DNA of 64,000 nucleotides from a virus (taxonomy: Duplodnaviria; Caudoviricetes): the IMG/VR virus record IMGVR_UViG_3300021957_000025, positions 1,156 to 65,155 of that record, one strand, 5' to 3'. The stretch's first letter is position 1. Every line of letters starts with the position of its first letter. Under the pieces are notes generated by a model, which saw only the letters and a list, made by a program, of their open reading frames with translations, ran no database searches and was not told the DNA's origin. Position numbers and translations under genes: made by a program. Shown piece after piece: positions 11,052-24,105 of this stretch.

Positions 11052-12053
11052 TTAAAAGAAACCGTCCAGTGAACCTTTCTCTTCATACTTTCCAGCATGA
11101 GGGCCAATAGGATTCTCTGATTTTCCAGCTCTCCCTTTAGTTGCAACATGTTCATCACAATATGCAACACATGATAATCTCACTCCTTCACCAGTGATAG
11201 GTGATACACCGTGCAATTCATTTGAATCTGCAATCAGTACGTCTCCATCATCTGCTTCAATAGCAATACCATATCTAGGGAAACATAAGTATGCACCCCC
11301 AAATTCTCCAATACGGAAGACACACATAGTTGTCATTCCGAACTCTAAATCTTTACCATCCAAATGTGCAGACATCTTTGCAGTCCCACCAGTTGAATAT
11401 TTGTTTGCAGATAACGCTGTCATAGGAGAACCACCAATGTGGTATTTCTCTTCTATACATTCATCTGCAAATGTTCTTTGCATATTCCATATCTCGGGAA
11501 CTGCAGTCTTTAGTGCTTGTTCATTGACGTTAGCAATCTGTGATAGGATTTCAAACTTTTCTTTGTTTGCTTTCTTGTCCATCCATCCACTGCCCTTAAT
11601 CATTCCTGTGAATCTGCCACGTTTATACCCGATTAGAACGGAATGAATCTCATTTGCTTCTGCAATACGATTGAACTCACCGTTCTTCTTAAGTGGATAA
11701 TAACTGTTTGGAGTTCTTAGGACATAGTCTTTACCTTCGATTAATCCTTTTGCTTTCATTTCTTCGTGGTTGATAGGCCCGGCTGCATTTGCTCTCATTG
11801 TAGATGTATCATCAATAGAAAACAATGTGTCTTTAATTAAATGATACTGGTCACCTTTGTATGCTCTCTTTACAATACATGCAAGTAGTGTTTCACCCAT
11901 GAGTGTACCATGAGGCTTATAAATTTTGATGATGTCGTCTTTAACATCTATAGATGATATAACAGTATCGTAAGAATCTTCATTGAGATACTTACCATTC
12001 CATTTGTCGAAGGTTTCTTTAAACCCTAAGTCTGTCTTTGCAGTAAATTCCAT
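11052..12053 (-). CDS. TET/JBP-family 5-methylpyrimidine dioxygenase
   Basis: AHLDGKD (HxD), GGAYLCFPRY, ELHGVSPI (distal His) and RLSCVAY (2OG-binding Arg); overlaps the MTase gene. Confidence 0.8.
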   Translation of the reverse strand: MEFTAKTDLGFKETFDKWNGKYLNEDSYDTVISSIDVKDDIIKIYKPHGTLMGETLLACIVKRAYKGDQYHLIKDTLFSIDDTSTMRANAAGPINHEEMKAKGLIEGKDYVLRTPNSYYPLKKNGEFNRIAEANEIHSVLIGYKRGRFTGMIKGSGWMDKKANKEKFEILSQIANVNEQALKTAVPEIWNMQRTFADECIEEKYHIGGSPMTALSANKYSTGGTAKMSAHLDGKDLEFGMTTMCVFRIGEFGGAYLCFPRYGIAIEADDGDVLIADSNELHGVSPITGEGVRLSCVAYCDEHVATKGRAGKSENPIGPHAGKYEEKGSLDGFF

Positions 12054-13303
12054 GGTTCTAATATTTGTCCTTTGATGTTTTCAACTAAGTAGTACATACA
12101 TAATGGTGCTACCATCAATCCAATTCTTGCACCCTTGTCGTTGTAATCACCAGTCATTTTATAATCATTTGGTAGAGTCATTAATCTCACCATTTCTTTT
12201 GGTGTGTAAATTCTTTTACCACTATGGTGGAAATGATTACCACCCATAAACTTTGGTTGACAACCCTGTTCAGTTAATGAATGAGCTGGTAGATGTTTAG
12301 GAACTATTCTTGACATGTAGTAAGAATGCTTTTCATCTTCGGGTTGTATGTGTCCGTTCTTAATCTGTTCTTGGAACCATGGTTTAACAATGTGGTCTCC
12401 AATAGATGTGTATGCTTGATTGTCTCTTTGTTTAAGAACTTCTGCAACTCCAGTACATGGGCCACAACCTTCAAACTTCTCATCGGGATGCACATCGAAT
12501 CCATTTACCCAGTGTCCTTTTGATGATTCATCCATTGCAGTTTCTAAATATTTTGCATCTGTAATATTTTCTTCATCAGTTTCTAAGTCTGAAATTGCAT
12601 CTTCAATAGATGCAAATTCTTTTACTGGGTCGGGGAAGACTGAAGACATACACATCCAAGGCATTCCAATACCTTCGAGTACATCATCACGTACACCAAC
12701 CATGAATACTCTTTCTCTCTTCTGAGGTACACCATGCTGATGACCCTTCATGATTTTCCAAGTCACTGAGTATCCTAGTGCTTCAAAATCGTTTACCATC
12801 TTGTTTAGATGGTCTCTTGCATAGTCCATTGAAAGACCTTTCACGTTCTCACATACTATAACTTTAGGCATTAACCCTTCGGCAATCCTAATCATTTCCC
12901 ATGTTAGGTCTTCAATGTTCTGTTGTTTCATACCATATGCCATCTTCTCTTGGTTCCATCCTTCTTTCTTGGAACCTGCCATAGAAAATGGTGGACAAGG
13001 TGGTGACCCATCCATGATATCTAATTCGTATTTCTTAAGTCCACTAAGCTCCATGATACCTTCTGCAGTGACTTCTTTGATGTCTCTACATTCGTGTACT
13101 GTGTTAGGGAAGTTTTCTAGGTAGGTGTCAACATGTAACTGTTGGAATTCGTTCATGTAACGAACGTCACCACCTGCTAGTTTGTAACCACATGAAGAAC
13201 CCCCACCGCCTGCAAAGAAAGTAATGTAATTAAACTGTTTACTTTCACTGTTACGGTGAAGGTCTTCTAGGTTGTATTGAAAATATTTATTATCACTCAT
13301 CAT
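12026..13303 (-). CDS. DNA cytosine-5 methyltransferase
   Basis: Motif I FAGGGG, motif IV GSPPC, motif VI ENV, motif VIII PQKRERV. Confidence 0.93.
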   Translation of the reverse strand: MMSDNKYFQYNLEDLHRNSESKQFNYITFFAGGGGSSCGYKLAGGDVRYMNEFQQLHVDTYLENFPNTVHECRDIKEVTAEGIMELSGLKKYELDIMDGSPPCPPFSMAGSKKEGWNQEKMAYGMKQQNIEDLTWEMIRIAEGLMPKVIVCENVKGLSMDYARDHLNKMVNDFEALGYSVTWKIMKGHQHGVPQKRERVFMVGVRDDVLEGIGMPWMCMSSVFPDPVKEFASIEDAISDLETDEENITDAKYLETAMDESSKGHWVNGFDVHPDEKFEGCGPCTGVAEVLKQRDNQAYTSIGDHIVKPWFQEQIKNGHIQPEDEKHSYYMSRIVPKHLPAHSLTEQGCQPKFMGGNHFHHSGKRIYTPKEMVRLMTLPNDYKMTGDYNDKGARIGLMVAPLCMYYLVENIKGQILEPWNLLQRQT

Positions 13304-13345
13304 GACTCCATTATACTATATTTAGCACAATTAGAATAGAGTGTT

Positions 13346-13873
13346 TTAAAGATTTTCTAATAGATTTTCGGGTGTGGAAATCTCATAAGGGTCTGACTCT
13401 GCATTGTCTTGATAGCCATCTTCGATGAATGCTTTTTCAATTACACCATCATTAACAACTACTGCATATCTCCAAGACCTGTATCCAAAACCAAGATTTG
13501 ATTTAGAACATTCTGCACCAATCAAGTGAGTGAACTCACCGTTACCATCGGGAAGAGGGTAAACGTTTTTGATACCTAATGATTCGAACCATGAGTTCAT
13601 TACGAATGTATCATTAACTGATACACAGTAAATCTCATCAATACCTTTCTCTTGGAACTTCTCAAAGTTCTCATCGAAGCCAGGCAACTGTTGAGTTGAA
13701 CATGTTGGTGTAAATGCGCCAGGCAATCCAAATACAATTACTCTTTTACCAGCAAACTGTTCTACAGTGTCTAATGCTACAAATTCACCACCGACTCTCT
13801 GTGGTAGGATTACTTCGGGTACTCTAGTTTCCCCTTCAATAATTTCCAATCCCATTCTTCTTTCATCTGTCAT
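13346..13873 (-). CDS. peroxiredoxin (Prx5-like)
   Basis: LPGAFTPTCS, VSVNDTFVM and RSWRYA motifs. Confidence 0.93.
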   Translation of the reverse strand: MTDERRMGLEIIEGETRVPEVILPQRVGGEFVALDTVEQFAGKRVIVFGLPGAFTPTCSTQQLPGFDENFEKFQEKGIDEIYCVSVNDTFVMNSWFESLGIKNVYPLPDGNGEFTHLIGAECSKSNLGFGYRSWRYAVVVNDGVIEKAFIEDGYQDNAESDPYEISTPENLLENL

Positions 13874-13893
13874 AATCTATACTCCATAATAAT

Positions 13894-13933
13894 AGATACA
13901 CCTATTATACAACATAACAGGTGTATCTGTAAG
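13894..13933 (-). promoter_or_regulatory. long hairpin after hsp20 (possible terminator) overlapping a CTTACA-N18-TATAAT promoter for the peroxiredoxin gene
   Basis: Perfect 10-bp inverted repeat AGATACACCT/AGGTGTATCT flanks the -10 box; extends by G-U pairs on the minus strand. Confidence 0.55.
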
Positions 13934-13941
13934 ATGGTTTT

Positions 13942-14370
13942 TTAAGAAATTTTGATTTCTTGAGGTTTGTCTTCTTCGGGTATTACTCTCTCAAGTGATA
14001 CGCTTAGAATACCATCCTTCATGTCTGCACCTTTAACGACAATATCGTCTGCTAGTGTAAACTTTCTAGTGAAATTTCTAGAAGAAAGTCCTTGATGGAC
14101 GAACTCCCTTGCATTTCCTTGGTCTTTCTGATTACCCATAACGATAAGAACTTCTTTCTCTTTTGAGATTGAAATTTCTTTCTTATTGAATCCAGCAACT
14201 GCAAGTTCAATTTGGAAGTTTTCCTCATCTACTTTTACAATATTGTAAGGTGGATAGTTAGAATTAGATTGTACATCTGCACGTTCTAATAGTTGAAGAG
14301 TTCTGTCGAACCCGATTGCGAATGGAAATTCTGTTGTGAATTTTCCGAAGACATCATTGAAATGTGTCAT
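13942..14370 (-). CDS. hsp20: small heat shock protein Hsp20 (IbpA-like)
   Basis: NYPPYNI, IELAVAGF and DGILSVSLER motifs. Confidence 0.95.
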   Translation of the reverse strand: MTHFNDVFGKFTTEFPFAIGFDRTLQLLERADVQSNSNYPPYNIVKVDEENFQIELAVAGFNKKEISISKEKEVLIVMGNQKDQGNAREFVHQGLSSRNFTRKFTLADDIVVKGADMKDGILSVSLERVIPEEDKPQEIKIS

Positions 14371-14438
14371 AGTTTTTCTCCTTTATTAAGCAAGTTTATA
14401 ATATGTAACCTCTAATGAGCATTACAATGGTATTTATA
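14371..14438 (-). promoter_or_regulatory. TATAAATA late promoter plus ROSE-like RNA thermometer in the hsp20 5' UTR
   Basis: Hairpin UGUAAUGCUC-AUUA-GAGGUUACA, then CUUGCU-uaauaa-AGGAG masking the SD. Confidence 0.65.
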
Positions 14439-14486
14439 ACACCATACTACTATTATATGGGTTTTTTCTGAAATTTCAAGGGGGTT

Positions 14487-15080
14487 TTATCTTTTATTGC
14501 AATATTTTTTTGCATTACTTATTTGTTGAACATTATTTACAACCACTACAGACATAAGAATGTTCATCCAGTCGAATGTATCTGAAGTCAATCTGTCTTC
14601 TCTTCTATCTATTTCTATAGCAGGTAATAGAATTGCAGTCTTAACTGCGAACATTTTACCTACTGAAGGAGACTCTCCTACAAGTGGATTTAGTTCTTTC
14701 ACACAATCGTATTTAAGTCCACGATATGTTGTGTAGATATCTGCAAGTTGTAGGGTATAGAATAAAGTCCAATCAAACGTATTAGGTAATTCAGATGGTG
14801 TAAACTGTAACTGGTTCAGATTTTCCTTTGACTGTGATTCTATCAACTTCAGAGAATGCTCTAGATGGACACTGTCGATATGTTGCTTCGCCCAACAGCA
14901 CGTCCACCCCATCATAATTTCGTGTTTGTCCTTCGAGTCTAGCACCAAGGTTGACGGCATCTCCAATGACGGAATAGTCAAATCTAAGTTCTGACCCCAT
15001 GTTTCCAACGATGCACTCACCAGTGTTAATACCAATGCCAACATTGATAGGGGGAAGACCGAGTGGTTTGAGTTCTTCAT
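14487..15080 (-). CDS. DUF5658-like membrane or secreted protein overlapping the cyclase 3' end; start uncertain
   Basis: LQLADIYTTYRGL...ELNPL motif; no in-frame start between the cyclase stop and this motif. Confidence 0.6.
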   Translation of the reverse strand: MKNSNHSVFPLSMLALVLTLVSASLETWGQNLDLTIPSLEMPSTLVLDSKDKHEIMMGWTCCWAKQHIDSVHLEHSLKLIESQSKENLNQLQFTPSELPNTFDWTLFYTLQLADIYTTYRGLKYDCVKELNPLVGESPSVGKMFAVKTAILLPAIEIDRREDRLTSDTFDWMNILMSVVVVNNVQQISNAKKYCNKR

Positions 15081-16632
15081 TGAGTTCCTTGGTAGCAATT
15101 AGTATTTCTTCTGCAGACTTGACTGCCATCTCGGCATGGTTCGGACAGTCCATTGGAGCATTCCAAAAACTCATTATACAATCGCCCATGTATTTGTCTA
15201 TAGTTCCACCATTATTTAGAATTATCTTAGTCTGTAAGTCCAAGAATCTGTTAATCAATTCTACCAATCCTTCGGGGTCATCATTCTTCATGAACGCTTC
15301 ACTTATTGGGGTGAATCCACATATGTCCATAAACATGAAGGTAAGTTCCTTTCTATCTCCACCAAGTTTCAATTTTGATGGGTCTTTTTGGAGCTCTTCA
15401 ATCATGTCGGGGGATAAATACTTTTGGAACTGCTTCTTAATCTGTTGTTTTTCTTGATATGTAATGTAGTACTTGTTGAAAGAAGCATGTCCGAACACCA
15501 CCAAGGAGGCAATCGATGAGAAGAAGGTATCGAAAAGAACGAGCTCTGAAGTCCAAATATAATAACTCCCGCCAATCTGGCATCCTACAAGCAATAGACT
15601 CCCTACCCCCGAAAGAAGTGTGGGAGCTTTGTAGACCAAACCCAATATCGTTATTAGGACTAACAGAAGAAGAACGGATTCTAAGGATTCAAGATAGTAG
15701 GATTGTTGTATTTGAACTCCTGTCAAAACGGTTTGGAGCAGGTTTGCTTGCACTTCGTGGGGATACATTACTCCCCTTGGGGTTGAAACTGGATTATTCA
15801 AACCCTCAGCTGTCAGACCCCATACAAGAATCTTATTCTCAAAATTAGATTCGGGTAGGTCAACTGCAGATATTCTATGGAATTTATTCCAATAGGAAAC
15901 CATTACGTCTGAAGTTGGAGTTGTTGTAATAGGTTTGTCTCTCCCCATTCTAACCCATTCAACTCCAGCTTCGGGTGTAATCTTAGTTTGATAAGACGGC
16001 TGGTCACGTAAGGCACGTAATGTCTCTAAAACTAGAGATGGATATACCTGTCCGTTTGCAGTAACCATAAGGGGTACAGACCGCGTAGTCCCATCAAAAT
16101 TAGGTGTCCCAGTGACAGCTGGAGTAGCCGTTACAACTCCTATACCGTAAGTGTTTTTAGCAAGTATTGGAATGGGTTGGACTATCCCAGTGAAATTCCA
16201 CAACCAATTCTTTGCATCTCCACCACCAAAAGTAGAGTTACCTACGAATGGTAATGCACCTGTATCTTTTTGAATTGTTGGAGCAGCTCCGAGGATTGTA
16301 AGTCTATTGACTAACCCCTCAGCAAATAGATTGTCTTGTGAAGGGTCTCTATCACTTTCCGAAAAAAGAGTAGAGAACAAATGAGTGTTAGAGTAATGAG
16401 TGTTAAGAAGAATGTCACGGTAAATACCACGGCGAATAGGATACTGTCCAAAAGTCTCAAGACTCTTCTCATCAATATCAACAAGTACGATGTCATCGAC
16501 ATAGAATTCACCCTGTTGTTGGTGAAGGTAATCAAACCACGACCATGAGATGTTTTCAACAAAATAAGGATTCCATATCTTTAGAGCAAAGATTGCTACG
16601 ATTGTTATTAATACTGATTTCCACGAAAACAT
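14791..16632 (-). CDS. CHASE2-domain class III adenylate cyclase
   Basis: N-terminal TM helix; CHASE2 (IVLVDIDEKSL...TPRGVMYPHEVQAN); TM helices; cyclase motifs FMDICGFT, DKYMGDCIM and FDYSVIGDAVNLGARLE. Confidence 0.93.
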   Translation of the reverse strand: MFSWKSVLITIVAIFALKIWNPYFVENISWSWFDYLHQQQGEFYVDDIVLVDIDEKSLETFGQYPIRRGIYRDILLNTHYSNTHLFSTLFSESDRDPSQDNLFAEGLVNRLTILGAAPTIQKDTGALPFVGNSTFGGGDAKNWLWNFTGIVQPIPILAKNTYGIGVVTATPAVTGTPNFDGTTRSVPLMVTANGQVYPSLVLETLRALRDQPSYQTKITPEAGVEWVRMGRDKPITTTPTSDVMVSYWNKFHRISAVDLPESNFENKILVWGLTAEGLNNPVSTPRGVMYPHEVQANLLQTVLTGVQIQQSYYLESLESVLLLLVLITILGLVYKAPTLLSGVGSLLLVGCQIGGSYYIWTSELVLFDTFFSSIASLVVFGHASFNKYYITYQEKQQIKKQFQKYLSPDMIEELQKDPSKLKLGGDRKELTFMFMDICGFTPISEAFMKNDDPEGLVELINRFLDLQTKIILNNGGTIDKYMGDCIMSFWNAPMDCPNHAEMAVKSAEEILIATKELNEELKPLGLPPINVGIGINTGECIVGNMGSELRFDYSVIGDAVNLGARLEGQTRNYDGVDVLLGEATYRQCPSRAFSEVDRITVKGKSEPVTVYTI

Positions 16633-16633
16633 T

Positions 16634-16903
16634 TTATGAGAATTTCTTCTGTACCCATTTAAAGACTGTATAAATGGATAGACCATAGAATGCAAGTACA
16701 GACATGGGCAATGCTATGTACGCAAGTTCCCATGGTGATAAAAACAGAACTTCCCAACCAAAATTTATAGCTGCCTCAACGTCACCCAAAGGTTCAAGTG
16801 TTGCTGGCAATGCAATTTCATTCTCTTCAAAGAGGTCTAGTATCTCATTAAACTGTTCTTCAGTATAACACTCGTAAAACTCGGGTGGGCATTCTGCGTT
16901 CAT
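16634..16903 (-). CDS. small membrane protein
   Basis: Start MNAEC overlaps the curlin stop; C-terminal hydrophobic helix. Confidence 0.65.
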   Translation of the reverse strand: MNAECPPEFYECYTEEQFNEILDLFEENEIALPATLEPLGDVEAAINFGWEVLFLSPWELAYIALPMSVLAFYGLSIYTVFKWVQKKFS

Positions 16904-17538
16904 TCCTGTGTTACCGATAATGTACAACCATTAGAAGTCTGACAGTTTTGTGTTAGATTATAAATTTGATTTGTGGAACTATCTTGCAATAGGTTTAAAG
17001 TTGTTGCATAGTTTCCTTGAAGTGTTATTGTTGAAGTGTGACTTCCACTACCTTTCTGTGTAACATTAGTGACGGAGTTATCGCTGTTTCCATAATAGTA
17101 TGTGGTTGAAGTGTGACTTCCACTACCCGATTGAGATAAGTCGTGGTCTACACCATCGACATGAACGTCTATGTTGTGTAGGTGTGTTCCATTTTGATAC
17201 ACATCCACCTCATTATTATTACCCCATATGTGTCTACCATATGTTGCACCACCAATCTGTTCTACGTTTTCAGTATTATTGGTTCCATCTACATCACCAC
17301 CCCAAGCCTTTCCCGACCCCCAATAAGAGACCCAAGAAATGGAATTACCATTACCTGTTTGTGTAAAGTTGAATGTGTTGCCACCGTGAGCAAAAGAGAA
17401 ATCAACTTTGTTGTTGTAACCTGTTTGAATTATAGAGAGGTCTACATCACCACTCTCAACTTGTTCAACATGGACATGATTTTCGTCTGCCCATGTCGAC
17501 AAGCTTATCAATAAAGTTAATAATAAACTTTTCTTCAT
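16900..17538 (-). CDS. curlin-repeat secreted protein (CsgB-like)
   Basis: Signal peptide; QTGYNN, QTGNGN and QKGSGS repeats; C-terminal CQTSNGC. Confidence 0.75.
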   Translation of the reverse strand: MKKSLLLTLLISLSTWADENHVHVEQVESGDVDLSIIQTGYNNKVDFSFAHGGNTFNFTQTGNGNSISWVSYWGSGKAWGGDVDGTNNTENVEQIGGATYGRHIWGNNNEVDVYQNGTHLHNIDVHVDGVDHDLSQSGSGSHTSTTYYYGNSDNSVTNVTQKGSGSHTSTITLQGNYATTLNLLQDSSTNQIYNLTQNCQTSNGCTLSVTQE

Positions 17539-17550
17539 ATCATATTCTTC

Positions 17551-17697
17551 TTAGAATAACCATAAAAATACTAAACATAAGACAACTCCCTCACCGAATG
17601 CTAACCACAACATGTGGTAATCATCCAATCTCATAGCTTTCTGAAACCCAAATAATTGTGCTTCATGCCATGCACGGAACTTTTCTATAATATTCAT
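17551..17697 (-). CDS. small membrane protein (48 aa)
   Basis: Hand-translated MNIIEKFRAWHEAQLFG...VLCLVFLWLF; GGAG SD. Confidence 0.65.
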   Translation of the reverse strand: MNIIEKFRAWHEAQLFGFQKAMRLDDYHMLWLAFGEGVVLCLVFLWLF

Positions 17698-17705
17698 ATA
17701 TTCTC

Positions 17706-18833
17706 CTAGTTTGTTTGTGTGATAGTAATATTTATAGACGAACCATCACCCACTTGTATTAGTGACTCCTTTTCGTCTGTTATGGTTCTAATGGATGCTT
17801 GTGCAAACATTGGTAATCTAATGGAAATAACTCCATTAACTTCCCTGTAGAACCATATCTGGCCCAGACCCTTGTCTACAATTGTATTGTATTGAGTGTC
17901 TTTGTCAAACCCCGAACCTGTTCCTTGAATACGAACACTTCCGAATGCTTGTCGTTCTCTATCGATACCAACCTTACGGTCAATCTCTAAGACAACGTCC
18001 AGTAAATCTTGTAAGAAATCGACATCTAATAAATCTCTATCGAGTTCTGTATATTCTAATTCATCATCTTCGAAATAGTCTTCTTCTAAATCATTGAACT
18101 CTAGGAAGTCTACGTCTAGAATATTACTACTATCATTCTCTGAACCACTTTCTTCTGATATCTGTTCTGTCACCTCTTCGGGTGGAGATACAATGAAGTA
18201 GTTATCAATTAGATTGGGTGTAATCCCATTCACTACAACTGGTTTTGTAGGTGAATCATCATAAGTTGAAACCATTGTTGTCTGATATGCTTCATTCATG
18301 GTCACCGAACCACCAGCATTACTTACTACAATTTCTCCCGAGGGAGCACCCCATTTATCGGGGAGCAGAATTATCAATGACCTTCCGATTTCATCAATAC
18401 TAGTTGTGAAATCTGTGCCTCTGACTGTTATCTGTGCAGTAGGTGTAGTTATATTTATGTTCGCTTTGTTTATTTTACCACCAAAACCCGAAGCAAATCG
18501 AGCGGTGCCTTGTGCCATTCTTATGGCCATCTTTGACTTGGATGGGTCGGGGTCATAGTAAACCTCGTCTATCCAAACTTTGGAGTGTTCTGTTAAGTCT
18601 AGTTCCTCGTCTCCTTGGAACTGAATTTTCATTCTTCCATTCTGAGTTTGTGCTGTATCATACATTAGCACTTCAGGCATCTCAGATGCTGAGATGACGG
18701 TAGTCTCACCGTCTCTCTGCAACCCAGCGTATCCTGTTTGTTCTGTAATCTCACCTATTGGTTCACCATGAAGTGAACCAATAAGTAAAAGATTAATCGT
18801 TATCGTCTTTTTGAACGATGTCAATATTTGCAT
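17706..18833 (-). CDS. FecR-domain exported protein
   Basis: DTAQTQNGRMKIQF...LTEHSKVWIDE, QGTARFASG and TPTAQITVRGTDF motifs; acidic linker. Confidence 0.85.
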   Translation of the reverse strand: MQILTSFKKTITINLLLIGSLHGEPIGEITEQTGYAGLQRDGETTVISASEMPEVLMYDTAQTQNGRMKIQFQGDEELDLTEHSKVWIDEVYYDPDPSKSKMAIRMAQGTARFASGFGGKINKANINITTPTAQITVRGTDFTTSIDEIGRSLIILLPDKWGAPSGEIVVSNAGGSVTMNEAYQTTMVSTYDDSPTKPVVVNGITPNLIDNYFIVSPPEEVTEQISEESGSENDSSNILDVDFLEFNDLEEDYFEDDELEYTELDRDLLDVDFLQDLLDVVLEIDRKVGIDRERQAFGSVRIQGTGSGFDKDTQYNTIVDKGLGQIWFYREVNGVISIRLPMFAQASIRTITDEKESLIQVGDGSSINITITQTN

Positions 18834-19521
18834 TAGAAGTCACGAAAGTCACATCGATAATACCACTACAAGATTGTCCAGTTGGGCATCCTGTATCTGA
18901 ACCACTCTTCTGAATGATGTCGATATCATTACTTGAACCAGTTAAGATTGCAGTAATGCTGTTATCAGTTGCATCTGATTGATTAGTGTTAATGTCATTA
19001 GATGAACCTGTAACAGTCCAGTTCCAAACAGCATTGTCACTATCTATCTTAGTAGTGAATATGTTTGATGAACCAGCAACTACTAAATCCCAGTTAAGGT
19101 ATTCAGCACTAGCATCTGCACCAATATCAATATCAAATGTATTAGACGAACCTGTAACAGTACCTAACATATTTAACTCGTCAGCACTATTTTGACCAAT
19201 GTTCCAGTCCATAACATTTGAATCACCAGTGAAGGTGAGGTTTATAGTTGCTGAGTCAGCAATCATAGGCCCGAATAGTTTGTTACTGTCTCCAAATTGG
19301 ACAAGTGTAAACGTATTAGATGCACCAGTTAAAACCATATCAGCAGATGTTCCCGAGAAATCATCTAGACCAACTTTGTTTCCATATCCTTTCTGTGTAA
19401 AATCTAGTACTAAACCAGTACCACTTTGATTCAACCATATTTCATTGTCGTCTGCTCCAGCAAATGCTGTAGTAGAAAACCCTAATGTTAAACATAATGT
19501 AATGAATAATTTATTCTTCAT
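18793..19521 (-). CDS. curlin-like beta-solenoid secreted protein (CsgA/B-like)
   Basis: Signal peptide ending AFA; repeated QxGxxN and (T/A)GSSN units; C-terminal CPTGQSC. Confidence 0.7.
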   Translation of the reverse strand: MKNKLFITLCLTLGFSTTAFAGADDNEIWLNQSGTGLVLDFTQKGYGNKVGLDDFSGTSADMVLTGASNTFTLVQFGDSNKLFGPMIADSATINLTFTGDSNVMDWNIGQNSADELNMLGTVTGSSNTFDIDIGADASAEYLNWDLVVAGSSNIFTTKIDSDNAVWNWTVTGSSNDINTNQSDATDNSITAILTGSSNDIDIIQKSGSDTGCPTGQSCSGIIDVTFVTSNANIDIVQKDDND

Positions 19522-20419
19522 TTTGTTTATCCTCTATTTGATGTCCCTCGTTTCTTCCATGAGTTCCGTGTGGATGTCGATGACCATCTTTAATTACCCA
19601 AAAACTTCTATCGTGTCCTTGGTATATTAGTTCTAAGACAGCTAGTTCAATTGCAGAACGAGTTGCTTTCGTAACTCCTTCATTCGCTGCTATACCGTCT
19701 TCCATTTCCACCAACTTCGTATCCATATCCACGAAGCGGAATACATCATAACCACCGCCTGTACTTAAAATCGTCTTTGTAGTCTGTACATTTAGTAAAA
19801 TTTCACCAGTTAAAGTTGATATTCCTCTCAACGATACCGTGACAACATCTCTACGATAGGAAACACTTGAACCAATACCTAAGTATCTTGCGCCTCGCCC
19901 ACCACTTTCAATGTTTGTATCATAACCAATTATCCCACCGTCAAGTAGGATACCAGCAAACAAGAGAGGTTGAATGCCCGTTGGAGCATCCTCATTACCT
20001 TCCTGTCTTGCAAAGTCTTCTCTAGTAGAACGAATGATTTGTCTCTCTCTTACAAGTGCGTCTAAACTTGTACGTTCTACTACTCTAAACCATTTACCTT
20101 TTCCAGCAGTCTTAAGTGCATCAATTAAAAATGATTCTGCACCTTGTGTGACTGCAGTAGAGAATGATGCAATGTTATCCATTCTCTTCCTTTGTCCTGT
20201 CTTATCTAAGAACCCATACACTGCAACTACTGGCATATTGTCAGCAGGTGGTAAGTCTGCAAGTTCTTGGTACGTAGGTATATTTACTACTTCTGCCTGT
20301 TCGACACATTCACCTACTCGTTCCATAACCAATGATGTACAGGAATCCGTCATGCTTGGTATGGCAGCACACCCGCTGATGAGCAAGACTAACAGTCCTA
20401 CTATTCCTAAGTTTTTCAT
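19511..20419 (-). CDS. csgG: curli secretion channel lipoprotein CsgG
   Basis: LISGC lipobox, VAVYGFLDKTGQ, FSTAVTQGA, WFRVVER and GGIIGYDTN motifs. Confidence 0.93.
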   Translation of the reverse strand: MKNLGIVGLLVLLISGCAAIPSMTDSCTSLVMERVGECVEQAEVVNIPTYQELADLPPADNMPVVAVYGFLDKTGQRKRMDNIASFSTAVTQGAESFLIDALKTAGKGKWFRVVERTSLDALVRERQIIRSTREDFARQEGNEDAPTGIQPLLFAGILLDGGIIGYDTNIESGGRGARYLGIGSSVSYRRDVVTVSLRGISTLTGEILLNVQTTKTILSTGGGYDVFRFVDMDTKLVEMEDGIAANEGVTKATRSAIELAVLELIYQGHDRSFWVIKDGHRHPHGTHGRNEGHQIEDKQNEE

Positions 20420-20878
20420 TTAAAAACTACCAGTACCGATTGGTATATCTAAAGTTGTAGTTGTTCCATCACTTGCTACAATGGTTAGACGAATGAATTC
20501 CACACCGTCTTCTCCAACCATCTGTTCGTATGTAACTGTATTACCTTCTATAGTGAAGACACCGTATGTTACAGCTTCACCGTTAGAGAACATATTCTCT
20601 ACTAATTGTTTTGCAAGTTGAGCATAGATTCTGCTCTCTACGTTCCTTAAAAATTTGGCAAGTGTCGTGTTATTTGCTTCTCTATCTGCCTTTGCAATTG
20701 CATCTTCAACGTCTTGTGCTATCTTATCACGTCTTGATTTCTCTTGGTTCTCAATGGTAAGATAATGTGCTGATTGACCTACCCCATTAAAACTAGGACT
20801 CTTAAATCCAAATACAATTTCATCTGCATTTACAGACATACACATCATCATTAAAATTATACTACTTACTATTCTCAT
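20420..20878 (-). CDS. csgF: curli assembly protein CsgF
   Basis: Signal peptide then EIVFGFKSPSFNG; immediately upstream of csgG. Confidence 0.85.
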   Translation of the reverse strand: MRIVSSIILMMMCMSVNADEIVFGFKSPSFNGVGQSAHYLTIENQEKSRRDKIAQDVEDAIAKADREANNTTLAKFLRNVESRIYAQLAKQLVENMFSNGEAVTYGVFTIEGNTVTYEQMVGEDGVEFIRLTIVASDGTTTTLDIPIGTGSF

Positions 20879-21131
20879 TTTTAGCTGCCTCTTTCTTAGC
20901 GTTCTCTTTATATTCGAGAACTACGTCTACCTTTTGTTGGAGACGAATCAAATCTTGGTCTAACATTCTGACTTGGTCGATGACTTTTATTAGTGCAAAA
21001 TGTTGCTTCTCAATTTCGGGTTCTAGCTTCTCACCTACAAACCACCAAATGTAATAGATGAAATAACCCAACCCAACTGCCATAACGATTGGAAATCCGT
21101 AATCACTTATTACCGCTACAAGACTTTCCAT
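20862..21131 (-). CDS. single-TM coiled-coil protein (GFPI motif)
   Basis: MESLVAVISDYGFPIVMAVGLGYF; start coupled to the upstream stop. Confidence 0.7.
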   Translation of the reverse strand: MESLVAVISDYGFPIVMAVGLGYFIYYIWWFVGEKLEPEIEKQHFALIKVIDQVRMLDQDLIRLQQKVDVVLEYKENAKKEAAKNENSK

Positions 21132-21238
21132 TAGATGAACAATAACCCTAACAGAAATCCTATGTTGAGACCCAGTGAACACATGAGAACAAAGTCCCTA
21201 GTAAATGTGTATTCAACCATTACTATTTCATTTCTCAT
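21131..21238 (-). CDS. 35-aa hydrophobic micropeptide
   Basis: Hand-translated MRNEIVMVEYTFTRDFVLMCSLGLNIGFLLGLLFI; TAATG overlaps at both ends. Confidence 0.55.
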   Translation of the reverse strand: MRNEIVMVEYTFTRDFVLMCSLGLNIGFLLGLLFI

Positions 21239-21534
21239 TAGTCACGTCTCACATCTAGTTTTCCATCTTCTATAAAATTTTCTGCACGTGCTACACGTTC
21301 TATATCGGGACGGAGTTCCAATGCAGCGGAAACTAGCATGTCAATCTTAATCATTTCATTTGACATGGTTCTTGCACGGTTCTCTAGTGAGTTGCAAAAC
21401 ATTGTTAACGTTTTAATGTCGTCAACTACGCCTTCTAGAATTTGTTTGATGACTATGAAGATAAAAAATCCCATCACAAGGCTCCCTGCAATCGGGGCTC
21501 CCACTTCACCTATCAAAACAAATATATCATTCAT
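21238..21534 (-). CDS. single-TM coiled-coil protein (GAPI motif), first gene of the curli operon
   Basis: MNDIFVLIGEVGAPIAGSLVMGFFIF; resembles 20862..21131; ATG is 5 nt after TAAATA. Confidence 0.7.
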   Translation of the reverse strand: MNDIFVLIGEVGAPIAGSLVMGFFIFIVIKQILEGVVDDIKTLTMFCNSLENRARTMSNEMIKIDMLVSAALELRPDIERVARAENFIEDGKLDVRRD

Positions 21535-21568
21535 GCAATTATTTATTCTTTTCACTTTCTTATACGCC

Positions 21569-21595
21569 AAAAAAAGGGACTCTTTTGAGTCCCTT
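21569..21595 (-). terminator. rho-independent terminator upstream of the curli operon
   Basis: AAGGGACUC-AAAA-GAGUCCCUU followed by a U run. Confidence 0.85.
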
Positions 21596-21614
21596 CTCAA
21601 GACATCGTAAAGAG

Positions 21615-21863
21615 TTATTTCAATTGTTCACGAATTTCGCTGATGACTGCAGCCTTTGCGCCAGATTTCTTAACCTTAAGGTTCTTCTTCTCTGCAAGTT
21701 CTACCAATTGATTCTTAGTTAATTTTTTTAACTCTGAAACCGTTGGTGCCTTTGGCTTGGATGGTGTAGTCTTCTTAGATACTGAAGATTTTTTCTTCTT
21801 ATCTTTGACAACGAAAAACACGAATGCAACAGCCAGTATTGCTACTATTACTATTCCGTCCAT
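21615..21863 (-). CDS. membrane-anchored basic protein with a SAP/Rho-N-like C-terminal motif
   Basis: N-terminal TM, Lys-rich linker, LKKLTKNQLVELAEKKNL...KAAVISEI. Confidence 0.65.
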   Translation of the reverse strand: MDGIVIVAILAVAFVFFVVKDKKKKSSVSKKTTPSKPKAPTVSELKKLTKNQLVELAEKKNLKVKKSGAKAAVISEIREQLK

Positions 21864-21881
21864 AATGTTCTCCTAATTAAA

Positions 21882-22076
21882 TTACTTATCAAGTAATGGG
21901 TTCTTGTCCTTTGCTTTACCTATTGCTAGAGCAAAGACTTCTATGTATTTATAGCACTTTGCCCAAAGAGCATCGTCTTTTGGTGTGTCCGTCATCATTA
22001 CAATGACTGAACATATAGAAATAATCGCTGGTATTGCTGACATGAATGCCCAAATACTACTTATAAAATCCCACAT
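21882..22076 (-). CDS. small membrane protein (holin-like)
   Basis: Hydrophobic N-terminal half, then TDTPKDD...LAIGKAK. Confidence 0.6.
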   Translation of the reverse strand: MWDFISSIWAFMSAIPAIISICSVIVMMTDTPKDDALWAKCYKYIEVFALAIGKAKDKNPLLDK

Positions 22077-22112
22077 ATGTTTTCTCCGTTAGTTGTTAAC
22101 AGAGGTATTTAT

Positions 22113-22523
22113 CTATTTAGACCCACCAATAGAGTATTTTGTGGTCAATTTCCAGTTGGTTTTCTCTTTGTATGGAATGATTTTGATTTGGGATAGGGGT
22201 GCAGTAGGTTCTACTATCTTAGAAGGGTCAACCAAAGTAATGAGTTTCCATTGTTCTAGAAGCTTACAGATAGTATTTCTTCTACCAATATCAGACTCAT
22301 CTATGTTTGTAGGTTTACCATCGAGTTTGAACAACTCTTTGAAGTGAGTGATGTAGTAATGACCACGCTTATGTAGGATATGACATGATTGGAATAGTTC
22401 CTGTTCTCTTCTAGACGCAACACCTATGCGTGATAGTGTTTCCCTTATCTTTAGGAAATCATCTTTTTCGGGGAAGGTTACTTCGACTAATTCTGAAACT
22501 ATTTTTTCTTGTGCATCATCCAT
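22113..22523 (-). CDS. regA: translational repressor RegA
   Basis: DDFLKIRETLSRIGVAS and QSCHILHKRGHYYITHFKELF motifs. Confidence 0.96.
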   Translation of the reverse strand: MDDAQEKIVSELVEVTFPEKDDFLKIRETLSRIGVASRREQELFQSCHILHKRGHYYITHFKELFKLDGKPTNIDESDIGRRNTICKLLEQWKLITLVDPSKIVEPTAPLSQIKIIPYKEKTNWKLTTKYSIGGSK

Positions 22524-22908
22524 TGTTATTACCACCAGTATTCATTCTGTTTTTCAACTCACGTAATTCTTTATCAGATAGAAGCGTATAAAGTTCTTTA
22601 GCTTCTCGGGTTGACATCTGATAATATTCTTTTACGACATCGAGTTTTTTACTAACATATGGTTTAGACCACTTAGAAAATCTTTGTCGTTTTCGTAAAG
22701 TATTTAGGAAAAACACATATTGAAGACGGTTGTCTACACCGTGACGACAATTCATTTCGTTAGTAAAGAAAACAGAATCTTGGTGGTAAGACAAAGATTT
22801 GTTTATTAGGAATGGTTGATATGCTTTCTCTTCGATATCATCAACCATGATATCAGTTTTATCGGAAGAGACCGACTTGACAAAATCGAATGGATTCCGT
22901 TTTTGCAT
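22516..22908 (-). CDS. gp62: clamp loader small subunit
   Basis: YQPFLINKSLS and RKRQRFSKW motifs; synteny with gp44 and regA. Confidence 0.92.
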   Translation of the reverse strand: MQKRNPFDFVKSVSSDKTDIMVDDIEEKAYQPFLINKSLSYHQDSVFFTNEMNCRHGVDNRLQYVFFLNTLRKRQRFSKWSKPYVSKKLDVVKEYYQMSTREAKELYTLLSDKELRELKNRMNTGGNNNG

Positions 22909-22909
22909 C

Positions 22910-23170
22910 TTAAGTATTTCTTATGTAAGAATCGAGTAGTTCTTGACCACTAAGAGCTTCACCGAAGTAAATAATCTCACCGCTTGACTTTATTGTTCTT
23001 TGTACGACACCGTTGTTGTATTCAACGTCCAGTACTGAACCATCATTACGTCTAGTGTCGTACCACATTGAAGTGAATGAATGTGCATGGATGGATTTAA
23101 CACCACTAGCCCATTCTTCAGCTTCTAGTAATAGTCTTTGTCGTTCTACTCTCTCGTTATGTTCTGTCAT
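22910..23170 (-). CDS. hypothetical protein
   Basis: Coupled ORF between gp44 and gp62. Confidence 0.65.
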   Translation of the reverse strand: MTEHNERVERQRLLLEAEEWASGVKSIHAHSFTSMWYDTRRNDGSVLDVEYNNGVVQRTIKSSGEIIYFGEALSGQELLDSYIRNT

Positions 23171-24105
23171 TTGAACTTACATTCTCCCATGATTTCAGTT
23201 AGACAAGCAACAAAGTTTATCTCTGAATCCATTGCAAATGCAGACTTGTATTGATAGTCTGCAATAATTAACACACACGCTGGAATTGATTGGGGCTCCA
23301 ATTGTAATTCTAACGCATTGAAAACTTTTCTGAATAATGTATTAAAGTCATTATCTGAATTAGTACCAACCCATTTTCTCATGGCTGACCAATTCTTTTC
23401 TTTGATGTTATTAATCAAGGGGGTTAACTTCTCTTCGGAGAGAGTTGAAATTAACCCACTATCAATAACACCACTTGCACCGTATCGTTGAATCTCATTG
23501 AGGACTCTTCGAAAATCGGGGAAGAATTTCATGATGAGTTCTGCAAGAACTCTTTCATCGGCCTCAATGTTTTCTTGTACACATATTCGTATACATCTAT
23601 CCAACATCTGTTGTGCAAGTTGTGGTTTTAGTTTTGGTGTGATACCAAAATCAATAACTGTAGTTCTAGAATGTAATGGTGGAATAATCCTATTCTTGTA
23701 ATTACATGTAAAGATAAATCTACAGTTGGATGAGAACTCTTCTATAAAGTTTCTCAAAGCTGGTTGAACTGAGTCTGCAGAAATGTAATCTGCTTCGTCA
23801 AGGATTACGACCTTTGCACCACCCGATAATGAAACCGAAGATGCAAAGTTCTTAATCTTTGTTCTGAGTGTGTCAATCAAACGTCCTTCATCAGAACCGT
23901 TGATTACTATAAAGTCTGCATCGAGTTCGTTACACAATGCTTTTGCAACTGTCGTTTTACCGACACCTGCTGACCCACACAATAATAGATTAGGTACTTC
24001 TCCATTCTTGACAAATTCCTTAAAGGTATCTTTAAGTTCCTTTGGCAGTATCGTCTCTTCAATTGTTTGCGGACGATACTTTTCTACATAGAGAAACTCA
24101 TTCAT
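23167..24105 (-). CDS. gp44: clamp loader large subunit
   Basis: VEKYRP, GSAGVGKTT and ILDEAD motifs; start MNEFL. Confidence 0.95.
   Translation of the reverse strand: MNEFLYVEKYRPQTIEETILPKELKDTFKEFVKNGEVPNLLLCGSAGVGKTTVAKALCNELDADFIVINGSDEGRLIDTLRTKIKNFASSVSLSGGAKVVILDEADYISADSVQPALRNFIEEFSSNCRFIFTCNYKNRIIPPLHSRTTVIDFGITPKLKPQLAQQMLDRCIRICVQENIEADERVLAELIMKFFPDFRRVLNEIQRYGASGVIDSGLISTLSEEKLTPLINNIKEKNWSAMRKWVGTNSDNDFNTLFRKVFNALELQLEPQSIPACVLIIADYQYKSAFAMDSEINFVACLTEIMGECKFK

Follow-up and report, generated by a model that had tools for sequence, protein, structure and literature searches.

Within a 64,000-nucleotide stretch of tailed-phage DNA (positions 1,156 to 65,155 of the IMG/VR virus record IMGVR_UViG_3300021957_000025; Duplodnaviria, Caudoviricetes), here called the window, we analyzed a cassette in which genes for curli (type VIII) secretion stand together with genes for a FecR-domain protein and a CHASE2 nucleotide cyclase. 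The list of open reading frames (ORFs) places eleven co-directional ORFs with small gaps or overlaps on the minus strand between positions 14487 and 21600. The cassette is a member of a viral type VIII secretion module that has already been published for marine pelagiphage-like viruses. The best explanation for the cassette as a whole, to which we give a probability of roughly 55%, is that a curli module is combined with a FecR/CHASE2 pair that would sense the state of the cell envelope and report it as cyclic AMP (cAMP). This reading is plausible and is one that we infer from gene content, predicted structures and gene neighborhoods. The FecR–cyclase pair looks like a borrowed bacterial envelope sensor and not like an iron regulator, and in proteobacteria the pair of a FecR gene and a following CHASE2 cyclase gene is widespread, there without curli genes.

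According to the available text of Wittmers et al. 2022 (PMC9599517), the viral type VIII secretion cluster is found in HTVC023P-type podophages and in pelagimyophages. It comprises CsgF, CsgG, CsgA/B and FecR together with one or two 'histidine kinases' and an adenylate cyclase, and often has a second CsgA/B as well. The same text infers that the cluster is of alphaproteobacterial origin and passed from myoviruses to podoviruses, and reports that the module was detected at each of the 65 GOV2.0 stations as well as in metatranscriptomes. Superinfection defense, sibling capture and cofactor import are the functions proposed there; FecR is treated as an iron-dependent regulator, and FecR and the cyclase are stated to lie outside bacterial type VIII secretion operons. 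The coupling of a curli module to FecR and a cyclase, which a sequence-only reading of the window had presented as new, is therefore in print. The additions made here are the CHASE2 sensor in the cyclase, the commonness of the FecR–CHASE2 pair in proteobacteria, cassettes of this kind in Caulobacteraceae, the lack of a histidine kinase domain in the small leading proteins, and the finding that none of the phage records searched encodes a cyclic-nucleotide-binding domain. The words 'CHASE' and 'promoter' are absent from PMC9599517, FecR and the cyclase have no mention in the main text of PMC7029224 or PMC9004378 (both on the 'curli operon'), and no paper naming both 'CHASE2' and 'CsgG' was found in our literature search.

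Curli components, the FecR-domain protein and the cyclase

All cassette genes described below lie on the minus strand, and coordinates are those of the window. Profile searches bore out the sequence-only identification of csgF, csgG, the FecR gene and the CHASE2 cyclase gene, all of which score above their Pfam cut-offs. The CsgF-like protein (20420-20878), which has a signal peptide, matches Pfam CsgF at 52 bits (cut-off 25.8; 1e-13) over profile positions 2-132 of 132 and phrog_35372 at 2.3e-39; a comparison with solved CsgF chains gave no match at E ≤ 1. The CsgG-like protein (19511-20419) is a predicted outer-membrane lipoprotein with the lipobox LISGC. It scores 164.2 bits against Pfam CsgG (cut-off 20.8; 3.4e-48) and 169 bits against the NCBIfam model, which is under the equivalog cut-off of 505, and its alignment to CsgG chains of E. 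coli (2.5e-44) retains the FSTAV pore-loop stretch.

Two exported curlin-like beta-solenoid proteins appear to be encoded, and their identity comes from homology and modeled fold, not from a Pfam cut-off. Curlin-like protein 1 (242 amino acids, 18793-19521) and curlin-like protein 2 (212 amino acids, 16900-17538) each have a signal peptide, and both show weak, sub-cut-off matches to the NCBIfam CsgA/CsgB models (3.4e-5 for protein 2 against CsgA). Protein 1 is related to the protein at the same position in Methylophilales phage Melnitz (BLASTP, 2e-16), which passes the Curlin_rpt model with 26 bits, and protein 2 to the protein at the same position in Pelagibacter phage HTVC008M (BLASTP, 1e-15), which has PA14 and Curlin_rpt (33.1 bits) domains. 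In the family alignment, a Q-x-G-x-G-N motif is accompanied by a G-(D/S)-S-N repeat every ~25 residues. The model of protein 1 is all beta, with a predicted local distance difference test score (pLDDT) of 78.5, and its best match among 48,161 PDB representatives is Pontibacter CsgA (8c50_A; Z 17.6, 192 aligned residues, 19% identity); nothing was found at E ≤ 0.001 when the model was compared with the PDB by Foldseek. CsgE was found in none of five phage records (the window record and four related ones), and CsgC and CsgD were absent from a Pfam scan of the eleven cassette ORFs, to which the search for them was limited, in agreement with the earlier remark that no csgE, csgC or csgD is visible.

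The secreted FecR-domain protein (375 amino acids, 17706-18833) scores 40.2 bits against Pfam FecR (cut-off 24; 4.7e-10). In its model (pLDDT 78.5), a signal-peptide-like helix at residues 3-20 is followed by a beta domain at 27-190 with pLDDT above 90, an acidic disordered stretch at 213-271, a helix at 273-294, and a confident C-terminal beta domain at 300-373, for which no clear structural match was obtained. Residues 56-215 match the periplasmic domain of PupR (6ovk_R) with Z 16.2 and a root-mean-square deviation (rmsd) of 2.6 over 136 aligned residues. Judging from hydropathy and the model, both the cytoplasmic anti-sigma part and the membrane anchor are missing, and no extracytoplasmic function (ECF) sigma factor or TonB-dependent transducer was found among 16 ORFs scanned in and around the cassette. 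The protein has the FecR fold, yet because it lacks the anti-sigma part and the anchor and because no ECF sigma factor or TonB-dependent transducer is encoded nearby, it is no FecR-type iron regulator.

The FecR family is large: of 8000 scored candidates, 4389 proteins reach E ≤ 0.001, and the set of representatives at 50% identity numbers 3322. Its members end in a C-terminal I-x-I-x-Q, with Gln373 present in at least 90% of 32 sequences, and their disordered linker contains repeated acidic L-D-x-D-F-L motifs. Residues 23-123 of the model also match PDB entry 5ix9, whose title is 'Cell surface anchoring domain' (Z 9.7, rmsd 2.4, 74 of 76 residues, 20% identity). The idea that the I-x-I-x-Q ending is a curlin-like strand was rejected, as the profile-profile comparison of the FecR and curlin 1 families gave a probability of 2.6%. 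An atlas search with residues 272-375 returned no usable match.

The cyclase gene (14791-16632) encodes a class III nucleotide cyclase that is predicted to consist of a transmembrane segment, a periplasmic CHASE2 domain, further transmembrane segments, and a cytoplasmic catalytic domain. It matches Pfam CHASE2 at 99.7 bits (cut-off 26.3; 2.6e-28), Guanylate_cyc at 56.7 bits (cut-off 21.9; 3e-15) and phrog_35576 at 8.6e-167. In the numbering of the 634-residue ORF that opens at TTG 16695 (relatives start at M22, ATG 16632), CHASE2 spans residues 31-352 and hydrophobic segments lie at about 22-46, 332-364 and 383-403. Alignment to the Cya2 and CyaB chains and to 18 relatives identified D457, D505, K501, N582 and R586 at the catalytic positions. 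In class III cyclases, two Asp residues are the metal-binding pair, a Lys with a Ser, Thr or Asp partner contacts the substrate, and an Asn and an Arg serve the transition state. The metal-binding pair and the NxxxR motif had both been recognized in the sequence-only reading. The Lys/Asp pair that it reported is in fact Lys501 with Ser575, and the partner is Thr in Caulobacteraceae and some phage-like relatives. A Lys with Thr or Ser is the mark of ATP-using class IIIb cyclases. Furthermore, the positions of D457, K501, D505, S575, N582 and R586 are kept across phage and Caulobacteraceae relatives. The catalytic domain looks intact, with all residues needed for activity kept, and its Lys plus Ser/Thr make-up points to the ATP-using class IIIb type, with cAMP as the predicted product.

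Gene neighborhoods in viruses and bacteria

Scanning IMG/VR with a FecR alignment yielded 525 contigs encoding a relative, of which the best 80 were examined by tblastn. CsgF, CsgG and curlin 1 occurred in the same order in all 70 viral loci with at least 3.2 kb of sequence upstream of FecR, and the cyclase was present in 27 of the 31 loci with at least 3.5 kb downstream, so that the linkage of FecR and the cyclase to csgFG is conserved among these loci. A DUF5658-like membrane gene accompanies the cyclase, after or before it, in many phage loci. Three loci (L080-L082) have this gene between FecR and the cyclase and have no second curlin. The record behind L082 is 44.5 kb long at an estimated completeness of 80%, which indicates a different kind of phage and fits the published transfer across families. 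Among 50,697 deposited phage records, a CsgG match was confined to HTVC008M and Melnitz (six records) and one 1.5-kb fragment, which agrees with the earlier statement that csgF and csgG are known from some marine myophages.

For bacteria, a scan of one genome per species with a nine-sequence FecR alignment gave at least 510 loci, and the best 80 were examined for phmmer matches to the window proteins (E ≤ 1e-3). They comprised 6 phage-like contigs, 2 Caulobacteraceae loci and 72 loci on proteobacterial chromosomes (L092-L163). The phage-like contigs (L084, L087-L091) were binned into metagenome-assembled genomes (MAGs) and carry phage-specific small proteins, Hsp20 or peroxiredoxin.

None of the 72 bacterial loci contained curli genes (CsgG, CsgF or curlin) or matches to the small proteins. 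A CHASE2 cyclase gene lies directly downstream of FecR on the same strand in 30 of them and nearby in another arrangement in 12; in 8 loci the flank was too short to judge. The adjacency of the two genes in bacteria, seen here among the best 80 loci and drawn on by the sequence-only reading, supports part of its idea of a circuit. A Pfam scan of the neighborhoods of nine of these loci found a Crp-like regulator (cNMP_binding plus HTH_Crp_2) beside the FecR–cyclase pair in eight and a tetratricopeptide repeat (TPR) protein after the cyclase in seven. A very large protein is encoded downstream, with RTX repeats in three of the nine loci, and an ATP-binding cassette (ABC) exporter lies upstream in four.

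The two Caulobacteraceae loci (L085 and L086) lie on contigs of 32 and 82 kb from two MAGs and have the order CsgF-CsgG-curlin-curlin-FecR-CHASE2 cyclase. Their neighbors are chromosomal and differ between the two genomes, including glycosyltransferases, a TonB-dependent receptor, methylmalonyl-CoA mutase and acyl-CoA dehydrogenase. These cassettes go against the published claim that FecR and the cyclase lie outside bacterial type VIII secretion operons. They are rare, as a full-length FecR match was found in 2 of 301 Caulobacteraceae genomes and nine others had the FecR domain only. Of 19 cyclases placed in a tree, the 13 that are linked to curli genes fell into one clade with 100/100 support. 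The two Caulobacteraceae cyclases were nested in this clade beside a phage-like contig, in a tree that was rooted at the midpoint and has long branches.

Several side observations concern these loci. A PycTM gene (L085:12524-13114; Pfam 8.8e-25, PADLOC 63 bits) follows the CHASE2 cyclase gene of one Caulobacteraceae locus on the same strand after a gap of 445 nucleotides (nt), and the other locus, L086, has a TetR gene in its place. In two phage-like contigs (L088 and L089), a small membrane/coiled-coil gene pair follows the cyclase on the opposite strand and does not head the cassette, and their cyclases have Ser at the Asn582 position. Five bacterial cyclases encoded beside Crp-like regulators (L100, L117, L119, L133 and L143) have Glu, Asn or Gln in place of Lys501 and Thr in place of Asn582; the L133 enzyme additionally carries Asn in place of the first metal Asp, and no Pfam Guanylate_cyc match at E ≤ 1e-4 was found for its catalytic domain. 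To judge from these residues, the five enzymes may form another nucleotide product or be inactive. The phage cyclases are the more canonical ones, because the bacterial ones differ at Lys501 and Asn582.

Small proteins, flanks and transcripts

Two related small proteins head the cassette. Protein A (98 amino acids, 21238-21534) and protein B (89 amino acids from ATG 21131; 20862-21131) match the same PHROG, phrog_18771, at 1.7e-23 and 1.9e-24, respectively, the match of protein B beginning at residue 19 of the listed ORF. Their paralogy is seen in an alignment, and each has a single N-terminal membrane segment and a coiled coil; the sequence-only reading had likewise taken them for two related transmembrane coiled-coil proteins. 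No Pfam family was found for either, in the case of protein A at E ≤ 1; an atlas search with protein A found viral clusters of unknown function only, and a profile search of the PDB with protein B found coiled coils only, at E ≥ 0.065. The published name 'histidine kinase' for the small leading proteins was rejected, as no HisKA or HATPase_c domain was found at E ≤ 1 and the proteins are only 98 and 89 residues long.

A 48-residue protein (17551-17697) and a 97-residue protein (16634-16927) both have a hydrophobic C-terminal segment. Most close viral loci have, in the corresponding position, a relative of the former with 57-87% identity (tblastn); the latter is present in part of the related loci only and matched no family in Pfam, NCBIfam or PADLOC scans. 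For 6 of the 11 cassette ORFs no Pfam family was found at E ≤ 0.01.

The last gene of the cassette (14487-15080) encodes a DUF5658-like membrane protein of 197 amino acids. The gene is present as previously described, and its family match, at 24.8 bits, falls just below the Pfam cut-off of 25.2. Its start lies inside the cyclase gene, and the 290 nt at the cyclase 3' end that the two genes share (14791-15080) are read in another frame. The Met-Lys start is invariant in all nine aligned relatives, and this start and the open frame are kept in 7/7 window-type sequences (the window and six viral loci); Met-Lys also opens the free-standing versions in L080 and L082, and the protein matches that of L082 at 9e-23 (BLASTP). 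Open runs of at least 97 codons in alternative frames numbered 7 of 2163 in the long genes of the window. The likely true starts are ATG 21534 for protein A, ATG 21131 for protein B, ATG 16632 for the cyclase (M22 of the listed ORF) and ATG 15080 for the DUF5658-like protein.

The content of the contiguous gene set is as it had been described from the sequence alone, and so is the terminator that precedes it. An intrinsic-terminator-like hairpin with a U-run at about 21569-21598 (minus strand) closes the preceding gene (21615-21863); its fold of -24 kcal/mol has a z score of -7.2, and none of 200 shuffles was equally stable. The hairpin (21571-21598) was absent from the output of the promoter/terminator scan and was confirmed instead by reading and folding. 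A box resembling the T4-type late promoter consensus, AATAAATA, is indeed present at 21540-21547 (minus strand), 5 nt upstream of ATG 21534. By itself it is within chance, because the window has 27 copies of the core ATAAATA where 20.6 are expected, and 10 of 100 shuffles reach that count.

Part of the stretch was found in 22 public sequencing runs, of which 15 are recorded as RNA and 6 contain at least half of the sampled words. In four metatranscriptome runs from four studies, contigs covered 28-30 of 30 bins of window 12000-24000. Single RNA contigs span the small proteins, CsgF and CsgG (19941-21519) as well as CsgF, CsgG and the curlin (19269-21025). Moreover, RNA contigs end at 21517 and 21519 in two studies, and the next contigs, from the upstream unit, begin at 21554-21670 in four runs. 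This break fits the terminator and the AATAAATA box, and is a weak hint of a transcript start. It carries no information on timing, and the late expression assumed in the sequence-only reading is at most putative. Contig depth varies between genes but cannot rank expression, and the uncovered bins at 16010-16811 and 17213-17613 in some runs are no sign of silence.

The window sits in a 65-kb virus record with an estimated completeness of 36%. The neighbors of the cassette are RegA and the gp44 clamp loader at one end and Hsp20 and peroxiredoxin at the other; the clamp loader is ~60% identical to those of Prochlorococcus phages and of Pelagibacter phage Mosig. The source is a marine T4-like myophage. 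Scans of the window for tRNAs and Rfam families found none. Directly downstream of the cassette, and preceded by a sigma-70-like match (14479-14452) and an ATAAATA box (14431-14437), lie the Hsp20 and peroxiredoxin genes (13346-14370), a pair that comes after the cassette in many of the related viral loci, too. Farther on, a 425-residue ORF (12026-13303) contains the candidate cytosine-5 DNA methyltransferase motifs FAGGGG, PPCPPFS and ENVKG, judged by eye.

A candidate envelope sensor, its rivals and known systems

The favored explanation may be put as a series of steps. CsgG and CsgF would form an outer-membrane channel in the infected cell, through which the curlin-like proteins would exit to assemble on the surface. 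By analogy with the fixed adjacency of the two genes in bacteria, the FecR-like protein would be the periplasmic partner of CHASE2, with its conserved N-terminal domain facing the cyclase and its variable C-terminal half facing the surface machine. The FecR–CHASE2 pair could then convert the state of the pore, the fiber or the envelope into cAMP. As no cyclic nucleotide monophosphate (cNMP) receptor is encoded in the phage records searched, the readers of the cAMP would be host proteins.

Several observations weigh against this explanation. Neither curlin-like protein reaches the Curlin_rpt cut-off of 20.7 bits (10.3 bits for protein 1 and 15.2 bits for protein 2), and the earlier identification of two curlins stands instead on homology to phage proteins that pass it and on CsgA as the best fold. 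The match of curlin 1 to CsgA 8c50_A has an rmsd of 8.7 Å, and generic beta-solenoids score Z ~15, within ~2 Z of CsgA. Despite room for one, 22 of the 72 bacterial FecR loci have no cyclase. Four viral loci (L075-L078) keep FecR (44% identical) and the curli genes without a cyclase, and are followed by ribonucleotide reductase genes on the other strand; FecR is for this reason not solely a cyclase partner and may have an additional, cyclase-independent role. The catalytic domain also matches the PycC models of Pycsar systems (PADLOC, 83.5 bits). A search for cNMP-binding domains in the window record and five related phage records, the complete HTVC008M and Melnitz among them, found none, so any cAMP read-out must be host-encoded or unconventional; the circuit called complete in the sequence-only reading has no visible output in these records. 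No clumping was seen in Melnitz cultures, according to the available text of PMC9004378. In addition, the assembled contigs show no true transcript ends, and RNA libraries may contain DNA. On the whole, the sequence-only observation is real and mostly accurate and its interpretation is partly supported; the circuit goes beyond the published reading and is something that we, too, infer.

A broader version of the envelope-sensing explanation is tentative. FecR and the CHASE2 cyclase might be a portable two-protein sensor that is coupled to differing surface-fiber machines. In Gamma- and Betaproteobacteria these would be RTX adhesins and type I secretion, in a few Alphaproteobacteria curli and CsgGF, and marine phages would have captured the curli version.

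It is unlikely that fibers are the whole purpose of the cassette. As proposed in the available texts of PMC7029224 and PMC9599517, a curli-like amyloid would clump hosts ('sibling capture') or block other phages, and FecR and the cyclase would tune expression inside the cell. In favor of it, the cassette has the pore, CsgF and two curlin-like substrates, and the second curlin of HTVC008M has a PA14 sugar-binding domain. The sensor domain of the cyclase is periplasmic, however, which argues for outside-in signaling; the cassette encodes no CsgD, Crp or other transcription factor, and the six phage records no cNMP receptor. The unclumped Melnitz cultures and the bacterial FecR–CHASE2 pairs without curli genes, at 42 of 72 loci, also speak against it.

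A role as lysis timer is improbable. The CsgG pore, alone or with CsgF, would here open like a pinholin or secretin and depolarize or permeabilize the envelope, as proposed for Melnitz in the available text of PMC9004378; the two small membrane/coiled-coil proteins that head the cassette, whose function is unassigned, could be fitted into such a scheme. On the other hand, CsgG is an outer-membrane lipoprotein and cannot depolarize the inner membrane, the two curlins, FecR and the cyclase are left unexplained, and Pfam and PHROG scans of the cassette identified neither an endolysin nor a spanin.

Little probability is also left for a Pycsar-like system, in which a cyclic nucleotide would gate the DUF5658-like membrane effector and so permeabilize the membrane. 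The PycC match, the PycTM gene after the cyclase in one Caulobacteraceae locus, and the DUF5658-like membrane gene that travels with the cyclase in many phage loci would fit it. However, the PycC models cover class III cyclases in general, and Lys501 with Ser/Thr575 points, by the general rule for these enzymes, to ATP. No PycTM was found in the window record, a TetR gene stands in that position in the other Caulobacteraceae locus, and the DUF5658-like protein has neither a PADLOC match nor a cNMP-binding domain, the small cassette proteins likewise being without PADLOC matches.

Import of iron or cofactors through an open CsgG channel under iron-dependent regulation by FecR, as suggested in the available text of PMC9599517 and by the Pfam family name, is very improbable, since the FecR-like protein has no cytoplasmic anti-sigma part or membrane anchor, the cassette encodes no ECF sigma factor or TonB-dependent transducer, and the bacterial FecR relatives adjoin CHASE2 cyclases and not iron transporters.

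If this portable-sensor version is true, an infected cell would report fiber assembly, pore load or cell contact as cAMP, and a host without curli genes would be reprogrammed. The module would give streamlined hosts a secretion and signaling function that they lack, and with 525 viral contigs encoding a FecR relative and 4389 related proteins it is very common in the surface ocean. Regarding FecR as a CHASE2 partner and not as an iron regulator shifts which experiments make sense, and connects the phage module with the bacterial FecR–CHASE2 loci, which form a large and unstudied class.

Among known systems, the closest are the published pelagiphage modules, which like the window belong to marine tailed phages. 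HTVC008M and Melnitz have the same order as the window, with small protein(s), CsgF, CsgG, curlin-repeat protein, FecR, second curlin-repeat protein and cyclase, and the available text of PMC9599517 gives this type VIII gene order for HTVC023P-type podophages as well. The window cassette is 33-48% identical to the HTVC008M proteins, and its cyclase is 40% identical to that of HTVC008M and 34% to that of Melnitz. Compared with the published module, the window lineage adds the 48- and 97-residue proteins and the DUF5658-like gene that overlaps the cyclase, and its second curlin is without the PA14 domain (27.7 bits) of the HTVC008M protein. E. coli curli (csgBAC, csgDEFG) share with the window the CsgG channel, CsgF, Q-x-G-x-G-N repeats and a CsgA-like solenoid, the last as modeled. 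The window cassette differs in having no CsgC or CsgD and, in the five phage records, no CsgE; its curlin repeats are longer (~25 residues) and below the Pfam cut-off, and FecR and the cyclase are no part of the E. coli curli operons.

Pycsar systems have in common with the window a class III-type cyclase domain and an adjacent small membrane protein gene; their cyclases are cytoplasmic and sense infection, whereas that of the window has a periplasmic CHASE2 domain and purine-type specificity residues. In the Burkholderia BiofilmReg operon, which is linked to biofilms, a periplasmic LysM-FecR protein is encoded directly before a CHASE2 histidine kinase (available text of PMC5192318). That operon signals through a histidine kinase and a response regulator and not through a cyclase, its FecR protein has LysM, and the available text describes no secretion pore. 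The proteobacterial FecR-CHASE2-TPR loci share with the window a secreted FecR-domain protein and a CHASE2 cyclase, and in them the gene of the former immediately precedes that of the latter. The FecR proteins of these loci are longer (~460-540 amino acids) and have only the N-terminal FecR domain in common with that of the window, and they are accompanied by a Crp-like gene, which was found in none of the phage records searched.

Finally, in Sinorhizobium meliloti, according to the available text of PMC13001267, CHASE2 cyclases sense an outside protein signal via the outer-membrane protein NsrA and act through the Crp-like regulator Clr, whose targets include a FecR-domain gene (PMC5498481). 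In the literature available to us, this NsrA route was the only case of a CHASE2 ligand or partner that we found. With NsrA, CyaD1-CyaD2-CyaK and Clr, it is a system in which an outer-membrane protein feeds CHASE2 cyclases, and thus a precedent for the cassette of the window.

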